From a virus (lineage: Duplodnaviria > Heunggongvirae > Uroviricota > Caudoviricetes): a DNA stretch of 64,000 nt. The position numbers and the translations under genes are program-made. The stretch's first letter is position 1; each line of letters starts with the position of its first letter. The notes beneath the pieces were generated by a model. The model saw nothing but the letters and a program-made list of their open reading frames with translations. It ran no database searches and was not told the origin of the DNA. The stretch is taken from positions 126,023-190,022 of the IMG/VR virus record IMGVR_UViG_3300033489_000001. One strand, given 5' to 3'. This document shows positions 5,872-64,000 of the stretch, piece by piece.

Positions 5872-6897
5872 GTGTCAAACCAAGAATTGCTTACTCAATA
5901 CCAAGAGTTAACCGCCAAAATAAAGAAGCTCGAAGCCGCCGTGGAGCAGGTCAAGAAGATGCGTTCCGAAATAGCCAAAGCTCTTCTTGACGCAAATGGC
6001 AAAGATTATCTCTATGACCTTGGGGATGGAGCAAAATTATTCATTTCAGGGACCAAGAGCGGTACTTATTTCCTAGCCCCCAAAAAGTCCAAGGGGCAGA
6101 AGGATAAAACCGAAGGAGAGCCCACAGAAGCCGGGGAAGAGCCCACAGAAGTTAAAACCGAGCCTACAGCGGCCCCCGTCTCCGGTGGAGAAGCCAAGAA
6201 GCGGGGCCGGGGCAGACCGCCCCTCAAGCTCAAGAAAGTACTCATAGACGGTAAGATCGTTGAGATTCCGGTCACGGGCTCTGCCAAAGCCGCCCCTGGT
6301 CCAACAGAGAACTTGCCCCTCCATAAGCGTAACACGGAGCATCTTGAACGGAAAGCGGCCGGAACTCCGGCTGAGACCCCAAAAGAGACACCCCTATCTG
6401 CGAATCCCAAAGGACAAACGCCTGAAGCTAAAAAAGGGAACATTATCGAGGTTACAGCCACACTAAGACCGGCCTCTTCCGTTTCAATCCCCGAACCGGA
6501 ACCAAATGAAAAGACCCCCGACGTTCAAACCGAGCTAAGGCCCACGTCACACCCGGTTCTAAACGGTGATACGGCTTCTCTAGATATTCCTCCACAATCC
6601 CAGGCTTCCGCCCCAACAGAGAAGCCCTCGGTAGAAGCTGACTCAACCGGCAATATGGCTCCAATAACGCTTGATTCCTTTCCCCCAGTTGTCCACGTTG
6701 ATTCCCATACCATAGTTGCTTCCGCCGATACGGGAGATGTTACCATTGAGGAGGAGGATATCCTGGACTCTTCCAAAAGTGACTCTGAAGACCCTACGGA
6801 ACCCTCGGAAGACATTTCCAACGTGGCCCCCAATGAGCTACCCCAAGAGGAAGAAGACCCCCTAGCGGCGGCCCTAGCGAGTTTAGAAGTAGAATGA
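5872..6897 (+). CDS. acidic P/T/E-rich low-complexity protein with N-terminal coiled coil and AT-hook-like KKRGRGRPP
   Basis: 341 aa ORF with apparent GTG start after GGAGAT; extreme compositional bias. Confidence 0.5.
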   Translation: MSNQELLTQYQELTAKIKKLEAAVEQVKKMRSEIAKALLDANGKDYLYDLGDGAKLFISGTKSGTYFLAPKKSKGQKDKTEGEPTEAGEEPTEVKTEPTAAPVSGGEAKKRGRGRPPLKLKKVLIDGKIVEIPVTGSAKAAPGPTENLPLHKRNTEHLERKAAGTPAETPKETPLSANPKGQTPEAKKGNIIEVTATLRPASSVSIPEPEPNEKTPDVQTELRPTSHPVLNGDTASLDIPPQSQASAPTEKPSVEADSTGNMAPITLDSFPPVVHVDSHTIVASADTGDVTIEEEDILDSSKSDSEDPTEPSEDISNVAPNELPQEEEDPLAAALASLEVE

Positions 6898-8063: not shown

Positions 8064-8098
8064 ATCTATTACTACACCGGAGGGAGGAAAAATTCAAG
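8064..8098 (-). promoter_or_regulatory. M1 promoter motif
   Basis: CATATCTATTACTACACCGGAGGGAGGAAAAATTCAAG abutting ATG of 7692-8063. Confidence 0.7.
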
Positions 8099-8106
8099 TT
8101 TTTAAG

Positions 8107-8874: not shown

Positions 8875-9081
8875 TTAGCACGCAACCATTAAGGCGAGTT
8901 GTTCCTCTTCTACTTGAGCTTGCGCCCGGCCTAAGTGAGCAACGATACGATTCCGATCTCTTTCCTCCATCACTGCAAGCTCATCGGGGCTTACATAGTC
9001 CGTCCGATGAATTACGGCTTGGCAATAATGCGAACGGTAACTAACTGTTCCGTCACTGTGTAGTATTGGTAAGTTCCTCAT
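8875..9081 (-). CDS. hypothetical protein
   Basis: 68 aa; GGGGAGG Shine-Dalgarno-like leader downstream of promoter motif. Confidence 0.55.
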   Translation of the reverse strand: MRNLPILHSDGTVSYRSHYCQAVIHRTDYVSPDELAVMEERDRNRIVAHLGRAQAQVEEEQLALMVAC

Positions 9082-13139: not shown

Positions 13140-14500
13140 GAAAATCAAAGAGCCTATTTATAGCCTCTAGGTTCGTTTTTTCCTTCCGCCCACTAACGAG
13201 CGAAGCGAGTATCAGCCAAAAGCCGAGAGGAGCCTATTTATGTCCCACTCATAAAGAAAGTGGGCTTTCTTTGTAGCTGCACTCTATCCAAAAGAAGATA
13301 AAAATCAAACCGTTTATTTATCAAGATCCGTACTGGACCATATAATCTGCCCCCTAAGCGTCACCTCCAACCCTCCTTCCCGCTCACAAACCCCAAAAGT
13401 ACCCTGCCTCGTCTCTACCCCAACTACATCGTATACCCTGGAAAGTAATACGTTTTGCGTCGTTTCAATCGCTACTAAATGCTTACCGTCACCTATCCGT
13501 ATCTTCATGGCGTTCCCTCTCATATCTAGGTGAAAAGACCTATACCCCAAAATCCCCCTATCCGAAAATTTCAACCATAAAAAAATTCCGCCTCCCCCTG
13601 AAAACCTACCCCTTTCTAAAAAGACCCCCTCCCCTTTATCTCGCTCCCTATGTAACTCGCTAACGCTCAAACCTTTCCTTAAATGACCTTTCAGAATTCC
13701 TCCGTTTAAGACCATGCGTATACTGAATGTGCCAATTACGGATAATAGCAAATTTTAAAAAAATAATGAAGCGGTTTTCCCCAATTTTTACCGCAAATAT
13801 CTTTATAAATAAAGATGGGATTAATCCGAGTAAATGGTATGGATCTTGATCATATAGCAACTGTAGTTGATCAAATCAAGATCAGCATACAACGAGTAAA
13901 TGGCACGGATCTTGATGATATTACAACTGTAGTTGATCAAATCAAGATCGAGGAACAAGGGCGATGGCACGACTATGCCCCTTCGGGGCGGGTCAAGCCG
14001 TGGCCATAGTTGTTCGATGATCTTTATTTATAAAGACTGTAGGTCATTAAAATAAATAAGGCCGATCTTGATGATATTGCAACTGTAGTTGATATGATCA
14101 AGATCGCGGGGGCTTAAAAGAGGCGGTGGTATAAAGGGAAAAGGGCATAGTCAAGCCCCTTAGTATACCTCCGGCCCTTCGGGCCGGGCAAGAACCGGTG
14201 GGCATAGACCATGCCAAGGATTATTGAAACCGATCTTTATTTATAAAGATCAGAAAAAATAAATTGGCATGGATCTTTATTTATAAAGATGGGGGCTATT
14301 ATTTGAAGCCAAGCTTGTGTTGGGCCTCGTGCGGCATAGATACCGGCTCCGGGAGCCGGGTCAGGGCGGCCTCCGGCCGCCAAGGACTAAGGCATCTGGC
14401 TATAGGGCTACTGGTTTCTTGCCCCTACCATCTGGGCGATAGGCTAGGGGCTTCGGGGGCACTATGTTAAGGGCCTCGAGCCGGACGATGTCCTTCTGTA
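13140..14500. repeat. repeat-dense non-coding region A
   Basis: 3 copies of a 42 bp GATCTTGAT...ATCAAGATC palindrome (13842-13883, 13908-13949, 14055-14106), >=4 M2 palindromes, UUCG-loop GC hairpins; no convincing CDS. Confidence 0.7.
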
Positions 14501-14819
14501 ACTCTAGTTTGTTACTGATGGCTGCCACCTTCCGCCCCCGGTCATTGGAGACAGGTCCTTCCATGATTTGGTCTAGAGCAGTTACCGCTTGCTGGATGAA
14601 GTCCGTAAACTCCTCCAAGGTCCTTCTCTGCTTTAGGGCTTCACACCGCCACGCCTTAGCATCATCTAGGGGAATGTTTGGGTTTTTTCCTTTTAGTTTT
14701 TTTACGCATAGTTCTTTCGGTAGTATACTGACCTTTAGAGGAAGCTGTAAAGGCTGCCTCTGTAATTGAAACATGCGGACGCCCTGACCTGGAAGCCGCC
14801 CAAGAGCGATTGCCTTCAA
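14400..14819 (-). CDS. hypothetical protein
   Basis: 139 aa; 3' end runs into the repeat-rich region. Confidence 0.35.
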   Translation of the reverse strand: MKAIALGRLPGQGVRMFQLQRQPLQLPLKVSILPKELCVKKLKGKNPNIPLDDAKAWRCEALKQRRTLEEFTDFIQQAVTALDQIMEGPVSNDRGRKVAAISNKLELQKDIVRLEALNIVPPKPLAYRPDGRGKKPVAL

Positions 14820-15507: not shown

Positions 15508-15542
15508 ATCTATTACTACACCGGAGGGGAGAATAATTCAAG
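15508..15542 (-). promoter_or_regulatory. M1 promoter motif
   Basis: Abuts ATG 15507. Confidence 0.7.
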
Positions 15543-15545
15543 TTT

Positions 15546-15974
15546 TTACGTCATTTTCTTGATATTTCGGGCTATAGCTTGAAACAGCAAGAAAGCTACC
15601 ATAAACCCCATGAAATTCCTAGGTTCAAGGAACACGCAGGAAAGAGCGTTAAGGGCCATCAAGCCAAGGTACAGGTAACCAGCCCATTTCTTCATGAACC
15701 ACATACCAACCACACAAATTGAGAGGAGTACTACTCCAATTATGATTAGTATGGGGGATAGTTGCAGTCTCTCCATTACAGATGCGTCGGCAACAGCAAA
15801 GCTAATAAGGAGTAGTACTGAGGCGACGACGCTAAGGATGCACACTACGGTCACTCCGAGTGGGCGTTCTAAAGTGCCTACCTTCTGCACTGGTGGGGCT
15901 CCTGGTTCAGGTGCAACTGTAGTAGTAGCTATGGGTTGGATTTCGGACGAATCATTTTTTTGTTCGTTGGGCAT
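15546..15974 (-). CDS. multi-pass membrane protein
   Basis: 142 aa, 3-4 hydrophobic helices; 3x18 bp tandem repeat upstream. Confidence 0.55.
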   Translation of the reverse strand: MPNEQKNDSSEIQPIATTTVAPEPGAPPVQKVGTLERPLGVTVVCILSVVASVLLLISFAVADASVMERLQLSPILIIIGVVLLSICVVGMWFMKKWAGYLYLGLMALNALSCVFLEPRNFMGFMVAFLLFQAIARNIKKMT

Positions 15975-16011: not shown

Positions 16012-16065
16012 TTATCTTTCCTAATGATGTTATCTTTCCTAATGATGTTATCTTTCCTAATGATG
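16012..16065. repeat. 3 perfect tandem copies of 18 bp TTATCTTTCCTAATGATG
   Basis: Directly upstream of minus-strand membrane-protein gene 15546-15974. Confidence 0.85.
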
Positions 16066-16094
16066 TTATTTTTTTGAATGCTTCGTGAGTTCAA

Positions 16095-17018: not shown

Positions 17019-17237
17019 TTACTTTACGTCTACGTACTCAAACACCATCGCAAGCACGTCATCGTAGCTGCCTGCCGCTATAGCGCGATTTCTAAACTCT
17101 TGAGCTTTTTCTGCTTGCCCAGCACGCTTGAGTACATTGCTTACCCGGCCAATAATGGCAAATACGTTGCCGTCTTCACCTATCAATTTGCACACGGGCT
17201 TGGTTTCTGCATTTACATTTTGAGCATTTTGTTTCAT
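17019..17237 (-). CDS. hypothetical protein
   Basis: 72 aa; ATG abuts promoter motif. Confidence 0.6.
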   Translation of the reverse strand: MKQNAQNVNAETKPVCKLIGEDGNVFAIIGRVSNVLKRAGQAEKAQEFRNRAIAAGSYDDVLAMVFEYVDVK

Positions 17238-17270
17238 CTATTACTACACCGAGAGAAGGAATAATTCAAG
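17238..17270 (-). promoter_or_regulatory. M1 promoter motif
   Basis: Abuts ATG 17237. Confidence 0.7.
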
Positions 17271-17348
17271 TTTTTTAAGAATTTGCTTTGTACCCAGCTA
17301 ATGTTTAATGTAACTTAGCGGAGAGGGAATCTAAAAATTCCTCGATAA

Positions 17349-17459
17349 TTGAAATTGCCTAAGGTTTCTTTTATTATAAGCTGCTCATTAGGGGAGCCCC
17401 TGTCGCGTCTCATGGACCTCCCCCGATCCCGGACGCTCTGACGGGGCTCCCCTTTTTAT
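17349..17459 (+). ncRNA. candidate small structured RNA: promoter TTGAAA-N17-TATTAT, then long GC-rich hairpin with T5 tail
   Basis: -35 at 17349-17354, -10 at 17372-17377; imperfect stem GGGGAGCCCCTGTCGCGTC/GACGCTCTGACGGGGCTCCCC (17391-17452) then TTTTTAT. Confidence 0.4.
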
Positions 17460-17527
17460 CCGTATGAATGTTTTTGACTCTATAGGGGGCAAGGTCGGAT
17501 AAAAATTCTTCACTCAATTCTAAGAAC

Positions 17528-17561
17528 TTGAATTATTCTTTCCCCCGGTGTAGTAATAGTT
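17528..17561 (+). promoter_or_regulatory. M1 promoter motif (plus orientation)
   Basis: TTGAATTATTCTTTCCCCCGGTGTAGTAATAGTT then ATG 17562. Confidence 0.7.
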
Positions 17562-17894
17562 ATGCCAAATAACTATGGGGAGGTTGTAATGAGGGAAGAG
17601 AAACTTGTTGAGCGAAGAGGTAAGACAGACTGTGCCGACGAAGAAGTTCGCGTTCAAGTAACCAGGCTTGGGGATGATTACAAAGTGTCAATACAATCTA
17701 CCAAGACAATTTCGACCGTAACCGCGACTTCTAACAGTACGTTAGCACCTGCCTTCACCGCTGCTCTTAGGGCTGCCATCTTGCAAGGCATCAGCTTTTC
17801 TTCGGCTGTGATAACCACAAAACGTGCCTATCAAGCGGCCGGAAACGTGCTTTTTTCAGATGAGCCCTCTTATGACTGTTATAAAACAAGCTAA
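17562..17894 (+). CDS. hypothetical protein
   Basis: 110 aa; ATG abuts promoter motif. Confidence 0.6.
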   Translation: MPNNYGEVVMREEKLVERRGKTDCADEEVRVQVTRLGDDYKVSIQSTKTISTVTATSNSTLAPAFTAALRAAILQGISFSSAVITTKRAYQAAGNVLFSDEPSYDCYKTS

Positions 17895-21580: not shown

Positions 21581-21800
21581 TTACCCTCTGGTTTGCAAAG
21601 CCACCTCGAGGGTTGGAAGCTGCCACATCAACCGGACGATCGGAGGCCAGGGGTTGTCTTACAACGAGGTCCTAAAGAAAATTACTATGGAGCGCGAGCG
21701 GGATATGCATGACATTCGGGAGTTTGAAGGTCAGATGTTGAGCATTCAAGACCTTACCGGCGCGGTGCATCAACGGAAGATTACACTAGACTTAGCTTGA
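21546..21800 (+). CDS. hypothetical protein
   Basis: 84 aa. Confidence 0.45.
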   Translation: MMREKKTMKRYNYPLVCKATSRVGSCHINRTIGGQGLSYNEVLKKITMERERDMHDIREFEGQMLSIQDLTGAVHQRKITLDLA

Positions 21801-21807
21801 GAAAAAC

Positions 21808-21841
21808 TTGAATTATTCTCTTCCTCGGTGTAGTAATAGAT
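21808..21841 (+). promoter_or_regulatory. M1 promoter motif
   Basis: Abuts ATG 21842. Confidence 0.7.
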
Positions 21842-27694: not shown

Positions 27695-28081
27695 ATGATT
27701 AATCTCTTTAGGAAGGTTTTGTCTCTTTTCAAGCTTCGCCGGGTTACGATTGAAGAGTCTTTGAGCAATCCGGTTAGGAAGCCTCTTGAGGAAGGCTTCA
27801 CTGATAAAGCTCCTAACTGGCTCATAGCCCTAGAAGCCCATAACTTCCTAGTCCGGCAAGGTTGGATAAAGGACCAAGACTACTATCTTCCGCATAAAGA
27901 CGCCAAAATCCGATACCCTTTAATCAAGGCTCTGGAAACCGAAAGCGAACGCCTAACCGACTTAATCACCACGCTCAAAGAAGCCCCTGCATCCTTCGAT
28001 CCTAAGGACCCTCTTTCTTTAGAAGGGATTTTGGATCAAATAAACAAGTCGGTTGCGTTTCAATTACGGAAGAGATCTTAG
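27695..28081 (+). CDS. KLGW-family protein (divergent)
   Basis: 128 aa; YPLIKALETESERL resembles YPLTLALEAESKLL of 23708. Confidence 0.5.
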   Translation: MINLFRKVLSLFKLRRVTIEESLSNPVRKPLEEGFTDKAPNWLIALEAHNFLVRQGWIKDQDYYLPHKDAKIRYPLIKALETESERLTDLITTLKEAPASFDPKDPLSLEGILDQINKSVAFQLRKRS

Positions 28082-28113
28082 GATCACTCCCTAGTCTTCT
28101 CTAAGGCAATTAC

Positions 28114-38083: not shown

Positions 38084-38404
38084 AAGGAGTCTAGTTTTTC
38101 TTTGGCTAATACGTGAGCCCGTTGAGTGATGGGAGCATCTTCAGGACTTGGATAGAACCATTTTGGAAAGGTCCATTTCAATTACAGGAGAGACCTAAGT
38201 CTCTCCCTGATCTTCCCTAAAGGAAGGTTCACTTGATTCCTTAAGTTTTTTACTACAACAAGGATTAATGCTGTAAACCCAATAAACTTGCTTTTTCAAG
38301 GAGCAACTAAACTAGGTTTAGTCCGAGATCAATAGTTTGAATGAAGATGTATAAGAGGTCAAGAGCAACTTTTCCGGTGTATCTAAGGGGATAAGGAGCA
38401 TTCT

Positions 38405-39313
38405 ATGGCACATCTTGGGGACAAAGTTTTAGGTGATCCCATTGCACGGGCTGTTGATTCTCTGACCAAACTTGGGTGGAAGAGCGATAATAACTATCGT
38501 TATTATATGCCCTTAGCGTACGGCCAACTAACCCGAACATATACCATTAGGGACGCTTTAGAGATTGAAGCACAGTTCCTTTTAGGTTTACGAGAGCAAA
38601 TTGAGGGATTAAAGGAAAAGGATGTCCCTCCTAGTGGTTCAGCCGAAGAGTCTGCTACCAATCTAGAGAAAACGTTACCTAAAGACCTCCTAGCGGCTCT
38701 TAGAACGATTTTTAGCCGGTTGGTGGAGTTAGAGGCTTACAAGGAAACCGCCGTTGGGATTACGAATAAATTGATAGAGCGATCACAGTACTTTGAGCGT
38801 AAGCTTTCGGAATCTGAGTCAAAAGCCGAGACTCCTGAACCTTCTGGTAGTTCCAAAGAAGACCCCGCCACCAAGTTAAAGGACGAGCGATTGGAGCACC
38901 TTAAGAAAAAGGCACAAGAAACGTTAGAGAAGTTGGGGTGGAAAAGAGATGGGGATTGGTATCATATGCTCTGGCGGGAAGGTTTCCCCAGTTATCCCCC
39001 CTACTCACCTGTATCTGCTTTAATTTTTGAGAAAGATCAGATAATCAATTTATTAACGGCCTTCGAATCGCTTTCCAAGTCTCCTGAATCCTCTACTGGT
39101 TCAGAAGAATCTTCTGTCCCTCCTATTAGCCCCAAGGAAACGCTCCCTATCAATAAGCTAGAGGATATGATATCCGAAACCCTTCTACAGACTCTCAGAG
39201 GAAATAGGCCTGGTTGCACGGAGTGGGAAAAACAAGCAGCGTTAGAGGAAGTACTAGGGGAGCTTTATAGCCGAAGTTTCAATTACAGGAGAGATCCTAA
39301 GATCCCTCCCTAA
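38405..39313 (+). CDS. KLGW-family protein with two KLGW modules
   Basis: 302 aa; LTKLGWKSDNNY and LEKLGWKRDGDWY modules; S/E-rich linker. Confidence 0.6.
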   Translation: MAHLGDKVLGDPIARAVDSLTKLGWKSDNNYRYYMPLAYGQLTRTYTIRDALEIEAQFLLGLREQIEGLKEKDVPPSGSAEESATNLEKTLPKDLLAALRTIFSRLVELEAYKETAVGITNKLIERSQYFERKLSESESKAETPEPSGSSKEDPATKLKDERLEHLKKKAQETLEKLGWKRDGDWYHMLWREGFPSYPPYSPVSALIFEKDQIINLLTAFESLSKSPESSTGSEESSVPPISPKETLPINKLEDMISETLLQTLRGNRPGCTEWEKQAALEEVLGELYSRSFNYRRDPKIPP

Positions 39314-52692: not shown

Positions 52693-53211
52693 ATGACCAC
52701 AGAAACACAAACGAAAAAGACGAAAAATCGTAAAAGTCCATTTAAAGTTCTTACTAATAACCAACGTATTTTAGAGGAATTCAAGAAGAGATCACCGGAC
52801 GTCTGGTTTAATTTTGATGAGATAAACTCTTGGGCCTTTATCTCTGGCTTAAGTGCTGCTGTTAAGTCCGGTATTTTGCTCAAACTAACACAAGATGGTT
52901 TCCTTGAACGGAGAACAAAACTAAGGGGTATTGAGGGGCGGCACCCTTACGAGTACAGGTTCCGTAAAGGATCTATTCGGAATGCAAGCTATTACTTACG
53001 TCTACCTTATTCGCGAGTTTTTGTTCCAGAAGAATCTGGGGGTTTTTCTACAAGGATTTTAGAATTCCCTGGTTGTTTTTCTGAAGGCGAGACCTTAGAA
53101 GAAGCCTACAAGAATTTAGAGGAAGCAGCACGGTGCTGGTTGAATGCTTGCATTGCACAAGGTACTGCTATTCCTCTCCCCGGCATCCCCTGTTTTACTC
53201 GTATCCCCTAA
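52693..53211 (+). CDS. HicB-like (UPF0150) domain fusion protein
   Basis: 172 aa; C-terminal EFPGCFSEGETLEEAYKNLEEAARCWL typical of HicB antitoxin fold; basic N-terminal domain. Confidence 0.5.
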   Translation: MTTETQTKKTKNRKSPFKVLTNNQRILEEFKKRSPDVWFNFDEINSWAFISGLSAAVKSGILLKLTQDGFLERRTKLRGIEGRHPYEYRFRKGSIRNASYYLRLPYSRVFVPEESGGFSTRILEFPGCFSEGETLEEAYKNLEEAARCWLNACIAQGTAIPLPGIPCFTRIP

Positions 53212-53620: not shown

Positions 53621-54244
53621 ATGTCAAACAATACCTCTATAACGGGGGAAATGTCTATTTTTGATTTTAGTTCGAATTTATCCATAAAGCCATCCTGTGT
53701 TTTGCAGGACAATTGTTGTCCAGAAAGAGTCTTTCACGATAAAAAAGTCAAAGATTTGCTAGACTGGACACCCACAAGCCTAGCCAAATTGAAAAATATG
53801 GGTAGAAAAAGTGTAAGAGAAATTCAAGAGGAATTGGCTAAGCATGGTTTGAAATTGAAAGAGGATCTTATTGAAGTAGTGGAACCCCCTCCTAAACAGT
53901 CAGCACAACTGCCCCCTATGCTCCAAAATGAAATGCTCTACGCCCTGACTTCGGCTGTTTTGAATGCTTTGGCGCTATCTGGCGAACCACAAATCTACAG
54001 CGACGTAGCCCCTATAATTGGCTACTACCATCGCGATCGAAACTTTCATATTCAGCTAGGGCGTTCTTTACGGGAAGATCATGCTAACGGCCGCCCTTTA
54101 CGGGCTTCTTTGGTTATAAACAAAGCCTTAGGTATGCCAGGTGATGCTTATTTTAAGGTGTGCCGGGAACTTGGCTATGTTATTCCGTCCGGAGATGAAG
54201 CTACATTTTGGGCCGAACAACTCAAGCGTCTTGAGAAAATTTGA
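53621..54244 (+). CDS. protein with RNA polymerase alpha-subunit C-terminal-domain-like HhH module
   Basis: 207 aa; VKDLLDWTPTSLAKLKNMGRKSVREIQEELAKHGLKL aligns with rpoA alpha-CTD (L..S.R..N.L...NLGKKSLTEIK..L...GL.L). Confidence 0.5.
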   Translation: MSNNTSITGEMSIFDFSSNLSIKPSCVLQDNCCPERVFHDKKVKDLLDWTPTSLAKLKNMGRKSVREIQEELAKHGLKLKEDLIEVVEPPPKQSAQLPPMLQNEMLYALTSAVLNALALSGEPQIYSDVAPIIGYYHRDRNFHIQLGRSLREDHANGRPLRASLVINKALGMPGDAYFKVCRELGYVIPSGDEATFWAEQLKRLEKI

Positions 54245-54300: not shown

Positions 54301-55164
54301 ATGCACGTTCAACACGTGGTGTATGGTACCTTATCCGTAAATCTTGAGCCAGATATTACGGTTTTTGTCGGCCTTGAAGGCAAGACTCGGCTTTTAAGGG
54401 GTATCCATGAAGCTGTCCAAAGCCCTGACAAAAAAGTGTGGAACTGGGGAGAAATAAAACCAGAAAATCCTGACGTTTTGAAGCCCTTACTGCTTGACGT
54501 TGATCGCGCTAGGGACACTGGTTTCTATAATGAAAAATCGTTGAACTATTTACAACAGGCTGTTGCTAAAGCTGGCTTCCAACGGGGGCTTACGTTTTTT
54601 CCCACAGAGGAAGGAGTTAAGGTAGCCTTCAACGCATCCGAAGACGGGCAAGCACACTTACGGGTTATTTTCACAAGAATTGCCGAACATCTGTTCTCAT
54701 TGTTTGGAGACCAAAATCCGTTAGATGGTTACGCCCTTGTTCTCATCAATGAACTCGAGCTGTTGTTGCATCCCAAATTTCAATACAACCTTTTACCAAA
54801 ACTCAAGACCACTTTTCCAAAAGTTCAGTTTGTAGTTTCAACTAACTCGCCTTTGATTATATCCACCGTAGACGCTCGTTGTTTGAGGATTATAGAAGAT
54901 GAGAAGGTCTATTCTGTTGGTAGGTACACCTATGGACGTGACGCTAATTCTTTGCTGATTGAGGTTTTTGGTGCTCCAAATAGACCCGTAGAGATTGAGA
55001 AAAAGATTGACAACATTTCTCGGCTTATTGACAGAAATAAGTTAGAGGAGGCCAAGAAAGGCTTAGCCGAGTTGGAATCTATAGTTGGGCCTCACGACTC
55101 GGAAGTCTTGCGTATTAATACGCTTCTGCATTTTCTCGAAGACGATGGAGAATCACAAACATGA
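54301..55164 (+). CDS. AAA_21/ABC-type ATPase-like protein with degenerate Walker A/B
   Basis: 287 aa; C-terminal LVLINELELLLHP...QFVVSTNSPLII matches the AAA_21 signature (ilLiDEPE..LHP...QfiiTTHSP) but has N for D; N-terminal P-loop reduced to VGLEGKT. Confidence 0.6.
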   Translation: MHVQHVVYGTLSVNLEPDITVFVGLEGKTRLLRGIHEAVQSPDKKVWNWGEIKPENPDVLKPLLLDVDRARDTGFYNEKSLNYLQQAVAKAGFQRGLTFFPTEEGVKVAFNASEDGQAHLRVIFTRIAEHLFSLFGDQNPLDGYALVLINELELLLHPKFQYNLLPKLKTTFPKVQFVVSTNSPLIISTVDARCLRIIEDEKVYSVGRYTYGRDANSLLIEVFGAPNRPVEIEKKIDNISRLIDRNKLEEAKKGLAELESIVGPHDSEVLRINTLLHFLEDDGESQT

Positions 55165-56864: not shown

Positions 56865-57398
56865 ATGGGAAAGTTCACTTACGAGTCTATTGATAGATTT
56901 CCACAAGCCCATTACGAAATTGATTTGGATTGGGACTACTTAGAGGAATGGTTAGAAAGCCAAAAGAATACCAGGATACCTGAAAGTGGGATTGACCTTG
57001 ACCCTGATTTTCAGCGGGCTCACGTTTGGACACCGGAGCAACAAGTAAGTTACGTGGAGTTTATCCTTCGTGGGGGAGAGTCGGGCCGGGTGCTTTATTG
57101 GAACCACCCAAACTGGCAAGGAAGCTTCAAAGGCTATCTTACCTTAGTTGACGGAAAACAGCGCCTGGAGGCTGTAAGGGCGTTTCTGCGGAACGAAATT
57201 CCTGCTTTCGGTAGTCTACTAAAAGACATGGAGTCAAGATTTTTAAGAAAAACTGGTTCTGGTTTCAAAATGCGGATCGCTAGGCTCAAAACTCGTAAGG
57301 ACGTTCTGAACTGGTACCTCATGATCAACTCCGGCGGAACGCCGCATACCTCGGAAGAGTTAGATCGCGTGCGGGAGCTACTGAAAAAAGAAGCGTAA
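56865..57398 (+). CDS. DUF262 (GmrSD N-terminal, ParB-like NTPase/nuclease superfamily) stand-alone domain protein
   Basis: 177 aa; DLDPDFQRAHVW...ILRGG...LVDGKQRLEA matches the DUF262 DxxPxYQR / (I/V)DGQQR motifs; no DUF1524/HNH partner; ATG abuts promoter motif. Confidence 0.65.
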   Translation: MGKFTYESIDRFPQAHYEIDLDWDYLEEWLESQKNTRIPESGIDLDPDFQRAHVWTPEQQVSYVEFILRGGESGRVLYWNHPNWQGSFKGYLTLVDGKQRLEAVRAFLRNEIPAFGSLLKDMESRFLRKTGSGFKMRIARLKTRKDVLNWYLMINSGGTPHTSEELDRVRELLKKEA

Positions 57399-57927: not shown

Positions 57928-57960
57928 GTGGGCTTAGCTAAGAAATCTTTCGCAAAATCT

Positions 57961-57993
57961 TGAATTAATTCCTTCCCCGGTGTAGTAATAGTT
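57961..57993 (+). promoter_or_regulatory. M1 promoter motif
   Basis: Abuts ATG 57994. Confidence 0.7.
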
Positions 57994-63004: not shown

Positions 63005-64000
63005 ATTTCAATTACAGAGGGAAGGATTACCTCCCCTCCTTATTAAGCATAATAGAATGTCGAGAGTCATTTCAATTTCAGGGGGAGAATTACTCTCCCT
63101 CCTTTTGCTCCCCTCCTTCTGAGTGCTTTGAGTAGTGATGGTTTCAATTACAGAGGAAGAATTACTCTTCCTCCTTATGTGCGTCTCTTACAACAGACAC
63201 GTATGGCGTTTCAATTACAGAGGAAGAGTAATTCTTCCTCCTCCTTCGGCTACTGAGGACAATTGTCAGTTGCCAATTAGTTTCAATTTCAGAGGGATAT
63301 TTACTATCCCTCCTTGGGTGAGCTATCCATGCCGGTGTTCAATTACGTTGCAATTACAGAGGAAGAATTACTCTTCCTCCTTACAGATAACAAGCTTCGT
63401 CCACATTGCCTTGGTTGTTTCAATTCCAGAGAGAGTAAATATCCCTCTCCTTTAAGTATATTTTAACTATCGAAGGGTCGCAAGATCTGGGATTTCAATT
63501 CCGGAGGGAGAATTACTCTCCCTCCTTGCACTCGAGCGGATGCCGTGAGGGTTCTTTTGTTTCAATTTTAGAGAGATATTTACTATCCCTTCTTCTATTG
63601 CAAACGATATTACTTGTTACGGCGATCTCCGGTTTCAATTACAGAGGAAGAGGTATCCCTTCCTCCTTTACTCTATTCTAAAAGTTGAGCCAATGCATTA
63701 TTTCAATTTCAGAAGGAGAATTACTCTCCTTCCTTGCTCGTCAAAATGGATATGCGCTCTAAATCGATACTTGTTTCAATTACAGAGGAAGAGAAACCCT
63801 CCCTCCCTCCCTCCCTCCCTCCCTCTGGTAGATAAATCCTATAGTCTTTCCGGAATATTTTCTTTTCAATTACAGAGGAAGAGGTACCTCTTCCTCTCTC
63901 TTGGGTAATGTAAGAGCGTCCTCGATTGGTGTTTCAATTCCAGAGGGAGAATTACTCTCCCTCCTTAAGTTAGGAGTTGAGCGAGCTAGGCGGGAAGGGT
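63005..64000 (+). CRISPR. CRISPR-like array: >=14 degenerate ~36 bp hairpin repeats with 29-39 bp unique spacers, truncated by window end
   Basis: Consensus (G)TTTCAATTNCAGAGGAAGAATTACTCTTCCTCCTT; period 65-75 bp; stems covary; no cas genes in window. Confidence 0.45.
63797..63821. repeat. (CCCT)6 microsatellite inside one array repeat
   Basis: ccctccctccctccctccctccctc. Confidence 0.9.

Follow-up and report, generated by a model that had tools for sequence, protein, structure and literature searches.

A conserved hairpin and a CRISPR-repeat-like unit between divergent early promoters of an uncultured phage: a candidate small noncoding RNA

What is encoded between the two divergent promoters at the point where gene orientation flips, at 17.2-17.6 kb, in a 64,000-nucleotide (nt) stretch of phage DNA? 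The stretch, hereafter the window, is taken from a Caudoviricetes record of IMG/VR (IMGVR_UViG_3300033489_000001, positions 126,023 to 190,022) and is part of a 411-kb contig (ENA ERZ27256988 k141_5351839). An initial annotation placed in this promoter hub a compact, terminated small RNA (sRNA) of ~75 nt without an open reading frame (ORF), expressed from a near-consensus sigma70 promoter and ending in a GC-rich hairpin. The evidence presented herein agrees with a small, terminated, noncoding RNA on the plus strand; the promoter, and with it the size, is the weakest part of that proposal. An element resembling a degenerate CRISPR repeat lies one spacer length upstream of the hairpin, and the phage has a CRISPR-Cas locus of its own, so that the locus may specify an RNA resembling a CRISPR RNA (crRNA). 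The promoter-like site, hairpin and T-run named in the initial annotation, with the parts of the hairpin as resolved here, are these:

17349-17377, plus strand: sigma70-like promoter TTGAAA-17-TATTAT, matching the consensus at 10 of 12 positions
17390-17453, plus strand: compound hairpin of 64 nt, with outer stem AGGGGAGCCCC/GGGGCUCCCCU, then GUC/GAC, GCGUCU/GGACGC and the apical part GGA-CCUCCCCCGA-UCC
17417-17426, plus strand: apical loop CCUCCCCC, C-rich and resembling an anti-Shine-Dalgarno (anti-SD) sequence
17453-17459, plus strand: U-tract TTTTTAT (TTTTT at 17453-17457), which completes a 3' end like that of an intrinsic terminator

The outer arms of the hairpin (17390-17400 with 17443-17453) form a perfect 11-nt pairing, and the whole structure, with a minimum free energy of -39.8 kcal/mol (z = -4.5), is far more stable than shuffled sequence, 0 of 200 shuffles folding equally well. 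It ranks among the three strongest hairpin-plus-T-run structures of the window, and its apical loop is predicted to be unpaired with a probability of 0.7-0.9. The hairpin is single-copy, no paralogue being found elsewhere in the 74 kb read, that is, the window plus 10 kb of the flank beyond its end (L035). The inner stem, the T-run directly after the hairpin and the two flanking promoters, which are 2 of ~22 copies of a 40-nt consensus, proved to be as first described, as did the lack of an ORF: over the hairpin, the window and its relative share no conserved frame on either strand, and coding potential of the interval was rejected for both strands, the frames being broken by indels in the relative.

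That relative, the sole informative one, is a 770-bp ENA contig (L006) whose downstream protein is 76% identical. Between the two sequences the hairpin differs by one substitution in 64 nt (98% identity), G17431A, which turns a U-G pair into U-A, whereas the adjacent coding sequence is 79% identical, with 32% of its third codon positions differing. The relative also has one additional C in the 5' arm and two additional Gs in the 3' arm, both of which lengthen the perfect stem, and its hairpin folds at -51.2 kcal/mol (z = -6.4); the counterpart of the U-tract is CCCCTTTTAG. Strong purifying selection on the hairpin and T-run, with indels that preserve the structure, is thus well supported by this comparison. 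Because the hairpin and T-run are conserved, the indels keep the stem and no reading frame is conserved, a small terminated noncoding RNA gene on the plus strand is very likely. The 3' end has the anatomy of an intrinsic terminator, a GC-rich stem (11 bp) followed by a U-tract of at least four (TTTTT here, TTTT in the relative); the 64-nt compound hairpin falls outside the range of a compact terminator, which has a short stem, a loop of 3-8 nt and no constraint past pairing. The near-invariance of the hairpin, inclusive of the unpaired loop, points to a function of its own.

Another repeated motif, CTGTAATTGAAAC, emerged from a census of k-mers; at 63005-63967 it recurs on the minus strand every ~70 nt, with each copy preceded by a short covarying hairpin. 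These copies belong to a CRISPR array that runs out of the window toward a set of cas genes:

63005-64000, minus strand: trailer end of the array with 14 repeats, continuing at L035 5347-9948
L035 1-4931, directly upstream of the array: cas locus in the order cas8c, cas7c, gene for a ResIII helicase of 771 amino acids (aa), 256-aa ORF, 66-aa ORF

Sixty-four repeats make up the array; they end in ATTGAAAC, their consensus is AAGGAGGGAGAGTAATTCTCCCTCTGTAATTGAAAC, and the spacers have a median length of 35 nt (mode 35-36). The five cas-proximal repeats are identical and the others heterogeneous, with several subtypes that carry compensatory stem changes; such heterogeneity is unusual for a CRISPR array. 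Cas8c was identified by PF09709 and by PADLOC, and Cas7c by TIGR02589 (E = 1.6e-41) and by PADLOC (E = 4e-45). With cas8c and cas7c directly adjoining a 64-repeat array, the phage is, by its gene content, the carrier of a type I-C CRISPR-Cas locus. The array spacers had no match in the 74 kb available or in INPHARED, and no self-targeting was seen. One over-long 'spacer' of 53 nt contains a (GGGA)7 run on the array strand at 63797-63825 (reported as (CCCT)7 by TRF).

Upstream of the hairpin, the hub contains a unit that resembles the repeats of this array, followed by a spacer-like segment and preceded by a possible promoter:

17282-17311, plus strand: candidate long-form promoter TTGCTT (17283-17288)-17-TAATGT (17306-17311), or alternatively TTTGCT-16-TTTAAT, with a predicted start at ~17316-17319
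17320-17355, plus strand: putative degenerate CRISPR repeat PsiR1, 36 nt, GGAGAGGGAAUCUAAAAAUUCCUCGAUAAUUGAAAU, with the hairpin GGGAAU-CUAAAA-AUUCCU at 17325-17342 and the tail CGAUAAUUGAAAU
17345-17355, plus strand: would-be crRNA 5' handle of 11 nt, AUAAUUGAAAU, the last part of PsiR1
17356-17389, plus strand: spacer-like segment PsiS, UGCCUAAGGUUUCUUUUAUUAUAAGCUGCUCAUU, 32-34 nt (33-35 nt in the relative), which holds TATTAT at 17372-17377

In covariance models of the array repeats, PsiR1 scored 20.6 bits (model R1, E ~0.01) and 13.6 bits (model R2, E ~0.23), the E-values being rough, and the homologous unit of the relative scored 10.7-12.5 bits. The tail of PsiR1 has the form ...GUAAUUGAAAC/U seen in repeat tails and is one base off the natural array variants GUAAUUGAAAU and GAAAUUGAAAU; the tail of the unit in the relative, GUAAUUAAAAC, is identical to that of an array repeat (L035:6804-6840). 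All six pairs of the PsiR1 stem are kept in both sequences, two of them via compensatory double changes, and the loop is identical; sequence left of ~17340 is not alignable with the relative. The large hairpin begins 32-35 nt past PsiR1, one (modal) spacer length of the array, and the base of its stem, AGGGGAG...CUCCCC, is the base of an array repeat subtype, AAGGGGAGGG...CCCUCCC, present in 7 copies. This base is all that the second 'repeat' has in common with the subtype. The inner stem, GUCGCG..., is presumably like canonical type I-C repeats beginning GTCGCG, a resemblance with no Rfam support that we take as a lead only. PsiR1 is solitary and no member of the array: the latter, from 63005 on, is ~46 kb away, and the cas genes are ~55 kb away.

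Four other solitary repeat-like units were found in the window, with E = 3e-4 to 0.02:

14738-14772, plus strand: solitary repeat-like unit
28057-28099, minus strand: solitary repeat-like unit
38175-38209, minus strand: solitary repeat-like unit
39276-39312, minus strand: solitary repeat-like unit

Three of the five units, PsiR1 included, have a promoter-like site whose end lies 8-10 nt upstream of them (P = 0.001; a relaxed scan, hence a prediction from sequence). PsiR1, with its predicted promoter, has the arrangement by which solitary repeats are recognized in viruses, namely a promoter within 250 bp upstream. At the place aligned with the candidate promoter of PsiR1, the relative has TTGCTT-17(...GGTG)-TAGTTT. 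Near the unit at 14738, TTTACG-17-TATACT ends 8 nt upstream, and a hairpin with a T-rich tail lies ~40 nt downstream. The units at 38175 and 39276 lie in direct repeats of more than 100 nt that flank a 302-aa ORF (38405-39313); the working strand of these two is ambiguous, because the plus strand reads as terminator-like hairpins.

Observed directly were the conserved hairpin, the covarying repeat-like unit, the distance that separates them, and the presence of cas genes and an array in this one genome; from them we infer where an RNA would start and how it would be processed, loaded and used. Because the unit resembles the array repeats, its tail is kept, its stem covaries and the hairpin lies one spacer length away, we tentatively favor, with a probability of roughly 0.45, a crRNA-like RNA made from a degenerate one-spacer mini-CRISPR and serving the phage's own type I-C system. 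The evidence favors a predicted RNA start near 17318, ~65 nt upstream of the alternative at ~17385. Transcription from ~17318 would pass through PsiR1, PsiS and the 64-nt hairpin to give ~140 nt in total; the base of the hairpin would imitate a repeat stem and, together with the U-tract, would terminate transcription. In the biogenesis of type I-C crRNAs, Cas5c processes the precursor at the repeat hairpin. By analogy, it would cut here at the base of the PsiR1 hairpin, and the product would consist of the 11-nt handle, a ~33-nt guide-like segment and a 3' hairpin. The cas5c gene of the phage is expected directly upstream of cas8c, past position ~232,220 of contig ERZ27256988 k141_5351839. Such an RNA might be able to load into the phage-encoded Cascade, and once loaded it would either guide Cascade to a target, in the manner of CreR/CreA/Cracr, or only occupy Cas proteins, in the manner of Racr.

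Several points weigh against a crRNA-like RNA. The model scores of PsiR1 are marginal, with the richer model, R2, giving a lower score than R1; its hairpin is weak (-5.9 kcal/mol, z = -0.5; -6.6 kcal/mol in the relative); and support from covariation is thin, because only two sequences exist. The long-form promoter is weak relative to the sigma70 consensus (6-8 of 12 positions), and as a member of the early-promoter class it was rejected, the position weight matrix (PWM) of that class giving it no score. In PsiS, positions 9-34 are conserved with the relative and the first 8-9 nt are not; the part proximal to the protospacer-adjacent motif (PAM) therefore varies while the distal part is kept, contrary to what simple conservation of a seed would produce and just as a conserved -10 region would have it. 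No TTC-flanked match to at least 10 of the first 12 nt of PsiS, nor any other match, was found in the window and the 10 kb of L035, a search that did not extend to the promoter of the cas operon or to the remaining ~337 kb; self-targeting by PsiS was thus rejected for the 74 kb. A protein search with Cas8c, aimed at the cas promoter, gave no match. Rfam, whose search the initial annotation had proposed, gave no sRNA or CRISPR-DR match at the gathering threshold over the 64 kb and, with the E-value limit relaxed to 10, only noise in the hub and the array, so that no CRISPR-DR model supports the hub. Finally, a role as 3' handle and terminator would by itself leave the 98% identity of the whole hairpin, loop included, unexplained.

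Comparable RNAs are known. Solitary repeat units of viruses and the Racr RNA anti-CRISPRs were described by Camara-Wilpert et al. 2023 (PMC10651486), and PsiR1 resembles Racr in that a phage genome carries it as one lone CRISPR-repeat-like unit, at a great distance from an array and with a promoter-like site upstream. The unit described here, known from sequence alone, differs in that it is degenerate, matches the phage's own type I-C array and not a known host array, and is followed after one spacer length by a long conserved hairpin-terminator. With CreR, CreA and Cracr (10.1101/2023.03.10.532045, 10.1101/2024.10.29.618823) it would share the layout PsiR1-PsiS-PsiR2, a PsiR1 that mainly retains the nucleotides of the 5' handle, and a spacer-like segment of normal spacer length; in those RNAs, which also occur in phages, the second 'repeat' can be almost unrecognizable (same references). 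Unlike them, it has in the 74 kb no partial PsiS match to a PAM-flanked promoter target, the feature that defines them, its PsiR2 is a 64-nt hairpin with only the stem base common to the repeat, and ~46 kb separate it from the array repeat closest to it and ~55 kb from the cas genes.

Among the rival explanations, the one that survives best, less probable than a crRNA-like RNA but to be taken seriously, is a stand-alone hairpin sRNA of ~72 nt, close to what was first proposed. It would start at ~17384-17388, from TTGAAA-17-TATTAT or from a conserved TATAAG, and stop at the U-tract. In support, a 10/12 promoter with a 17-nt spacer is expected by chance within ~40 nt upstream of the hairpin in only ~0.5% of cases, and the -10 region and T-rich spacer are kept in the relative, where TTTCTTTT(A/G)TTATAAG is retained and TGtTATAAG makes an extended -10. 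The hexamers do stand where the initial annotation put them; as a significant signal, the 'near-consensus' promoter did not hold up, since sites matching at least 10 of 12 positions number 14 in the window against 13.9 expected. Moreover, the TTGAAA taken as its -35 falls in the tail of the repeat-like unit 17320-17355, and it reads TTAAAA in the relative. Array repeat tails are followed by a -10-like hexamer at promoter spacing in 2 of 64 cases by chance, one being TTGAAA-16-TATAAT, and TTGAAA-17-TATTAT therefore appears to be the kind of coincidence that repeat tails yield. With the promoter at chance level and its -35 both unconserved and part of a repeat-like element, the size of ~75 nt is doubtful. 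A start at this promoter would also leave the covarying hairpin and conserved repeat tail upstream of it unexplained. In one array repeat (L035 8639-8674), the TTGAAA tail is followed after 16 nt by a perfect TATAAT inside the spacer, which is either a possible internal array promoter or a coincidence.

A stand-alone sRNA would act in trans, its C-rich loop CCUCCCCC mimicking the anti-SD and pairing with G-rich ribosome-binding sites (RBSs), as in C-rich-loop sRNAs of Firmicutes. The conservation of the whole hairpin fits an RNA with sequence-specific partners of its own, and C-rich motifs that pair with SD sequences are documented for RsaE/RoxS and RsaA (PMC4409812, PMC5419742, PMC3961350). 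With these RNAs the element shares a short terminated form that exposes such a motif; it differs from them in being phage-encoded, in showing no sequence or covariance similarity (no Rfam match), in having a single C-rich loop on one long hairpin, and in that no specific target stands out. Its short form also resembles other phage RNAs. Lambda OOP RNA is 77 nt long and P22 sar RNA 68-69 nt, and both are cis-antisense to a neighboring gene. Like them, the element would span ~70 nt from promoter to terminator in a phage early control region; unlike them, it has no known opposite-strand transcription across it. Two genes are candidate targets: the adjacent one, whose GGGGAGGU stands at 17578, and one that starts at 9081. 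The neighboring genes and promoters are as follows:

17520-17559, plus strand: rightward early promoter, a member of the 40-nt consensus class
17589-17894, plus strand: 101-aa gene with a ~30-nt leader and the SD sequence GGGGAGG at 17578-17584
17238-17277, minus strand: leftward early promoter of the same class
within 17019-17277, minus strand: 72-aa gene (phrog_1933), apparently leaderless, in the leftward unit

Target prediction, suggested with the initial annotation, singled out no gene: the loop can form duplexes of 8-9 bp with the SD sequences of the 17589 gene and the gene starting at 9081, and the start context AUGAG pairs with CUCAU in both, but such complementarity is generic, the adjacent gene ranking 28th and the 9081 gene 6th among 1087 candidate start windows. 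The genes at 17589-17894 (plus strand) and 8875-9081 (minus strand) are each the first after an early promoter, and their leaders share an unusual layout: promoter, ~17 nt, GGGGAGGU, 5 nt, AUGAGG. At gene starts, GGGGAGGU occurs at those two sites only in the window, both being complementary to the hairpin loop. The start of the 101-aa gene was set at 17589, because the upstream ATG at 17562 reads ATA in the relative. Its protein had no family, sequence or fold match, despite a good structure model (pLDDT 81.5).

The promoter class to which both flanking promoters belong has the consensus AAAAACTTGAATTATTCyyyyCTCCGGTGTAGTAATAG, with 24 motif matches in the window against 1 expected. Examples are:

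8066-8105, minus strand: early-promoter copy
15510-15549, minus strand: early-promoter copy
17238-17277, minus strand: the leftward promoter of the hub
17520-17559, plus strand: the rightward promoter of the hub
21800-21839, plus strand: early-promoter copy
57952-57991, plus strand: early-promoter copy

In most copies an ATG follows 2 nt past the motif (consensus ...TAATAGATATGG), which suggests that early mRNAs of this phage are in most cases leaderless; a minority of copies have a leader of ~20-30 nt with a strong GGAGG SD sequence.

It is unlikely that the hairpin is only a terminator or insulator that stops stray rightward transcription before the promoter at 17520-17559, with the repeat unit a decaying remnant and the RNA a by-product. 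Its intrinsic-terminator anatomy, a GC-rich stem followed by five Ts, its place ~65 nt upstream of a strong promoter, and the linkage of the RNA module in the relative to the rightward promoter and gene, not to the leftward ones, all agree with such a role. The 101-aa gene is the sole neighbor conserved together with the module in the relative, and the side of the leftward promoter and 72-aa gene is not kept beside it in either that contig or L016. However, the consensus promoters to the left all point leftward, so that save for transcripts born in the hub there is nothing obvious to stop; a 64-nt compound hairpin is far bigger than termination requires; changes in the loop and inner stem should be tolerated, in contrast to the single change observed; and covariation in the upstream unit argues for a function.

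An RNA with two functions was also considered, and is again unlikely. It would program the phage Cascade for phage or host genes, while its loop would bind RBSs or the SD-like AAGGAGG starts of the CRISPR repeats. Single promoter-driven repeat units would then be scattered through early regions, and at this locus the 3' repeat would have been replaced by an ultra-conserved hairpin with an anti-SD loop. If so, the many apparently leaderless early mRNAs of the phage would be favored.

A DNA-level element, in which the GC-rich palindrome would form a cruciform or be bound by a protein (to initiate replication or in packaging, for instance), is very unlikely. It would suit the position of the hairpin, where genes switch orientation and cumulative GC skew reaches its minimum, and conservation of the whole element is compatible with recognition by a protein. 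Nonetheless, the skew minimum merely tracks gene orientation, the U-G to U-A change matters for an RNA of the plus strand, the T-run is present on one strand only, and an iteron- and palindrome-rich region at 13.8-14.3 kb suits an origin better. Hardly credible is a minus-strand mini-ORF or CreT-like RNA toxin, in which the loop would be a strong SD sequence (GGGGGAGG) followed by AUG AGA CGC GAC AGG: the minus strand does read so, the CRISPR-guarding CreT toxins consist of a strong SD sequence, a start codon and rare codons, and CreTA modules couple such a toxin with a crRNA-like antitoxin (10.1101/2024.10.29.618823; 10.1101/2023.03.10.532045), as the CRISPR-repeat-like unit alongside would recall, but the spacing from SD to AUG is just 3 nt, the frame has 32 codons in the window versus 8 in the relative, no promoter for the minus strand turned up to the right, that strand lacks a following T-run, and PsiS, unlike CreA, matches no nearby sequence.

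Searches beyond the relative added little. ARAGORN detected neither a tRNA nor a tmRNA gene in the window, and blastn against INPHARED phages gave no match. Scans of IMG/VR with the promoter, hairpin arms, hairpin core and repeat tail returned single chance matches in coding DNA only, and scans of one JGI metagenome and one GTDB genome with the hairpin core returned chance matches in high-GC coding regions only. A Logan contig was 100% identical and gave no added information. Relatives sought via the 72-aa neighbor were set aside: L016 is without the locus, and L017-L019 are unrelated. Within the hub, an inverted repeat, TTTTTATCCG/CGGATAAAAA, is not conserved in the 770-bp relative and was dismissed as chance.

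The window holds ~146 mostly small ORFs at 44% GC, and family matches were found for few of its proteins; for one of them, a relative with 36% identity turned up in an 'uncultured phage' record of 485 kb. The sequence looks like the early part of a huge phage genome. An 18-bp near-palindrome, ATCTTTAT(A/T)(A/T)ATAAAGAT, occurs in 13 copies clustered in intergenic regions:

12174, 13799, 14020, 14233, 14273, 24125, 24442, 24476, 24766, 25645, 25736, 26945, 27274: copies of the 18-bp palindrome

The palindrome includes the T4-late-promoter-like TATAAATA and may serve as an operator or mark a second class of promoter; a tie between it and the hairpin was rejected, as the hub has no PWM match. Several copies lie in a noncoding stretch of ~600 bp at 13800-14400, together with three palindromic units of ~40 nt (GATCTTGAT..GATCAACTACAGTTG..ATCAAGATC) and, on the minus strand at ~14142-14220, a strong hairpin with a T-run (-39.8 kcal/mol); this stretch may be an iteron or origin region, or hold another noncoding RNA. 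At 5872-6897, 1 kb within a minus-strand gene block, the sole long ORF is on the plus strand, with a GTG start and no family match, GC content is ~50%, and strong minus-strand hairpins with T-runs occur at ~6157 and ~6109; the interval may be a miscalled coding sequence or a large structured RNA. A cluster resembling defense or counter-defense genes (52693-53211, 53621-54244, 54301-55164 and 56865-57398) includes a HicB-like antitoxin domain, a weak match to the RNA polymerase alpha C-terminal domain, a PtuA-like (Septu) AAA ATPase represented by its C-terminal half (PADLOC, E = 2e-44), and a protein with a GmrSD N-terminal domain. An 18-nt tandem repeat, TTATCTTTCCTAATGATG, is present 3.4 times at 16012-16073.

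To date, the main role ascribed to repeat-like RNAs encoded by phages is that of weapons against the CRISPR-Cas systems of their hosts. The units reported here match the phage's own array, in a genome with effector genes of its own. Solitary repeat units, Racr and Cracr/CreR being already known, what would be new is a unit cognate to a phage-borne system, with the 3' repeat replaced by a hairpin-terminator. If the RNA is a plain sRNA instead, it would join the very small number of conserved candidate sRNAs from huge phages that are uncultured, with an anti-SD loop open to direct test against the contrast between leaderless and SD-led genes. If it is crRNA-like, it would represent a compact natural design of one repeat, one guide and a hairpin-terminator, and if it is loaded into the phage Cascade, CRISPR machinery would serve a huge phage as a programmable means of regulating how its own infection proceeds.

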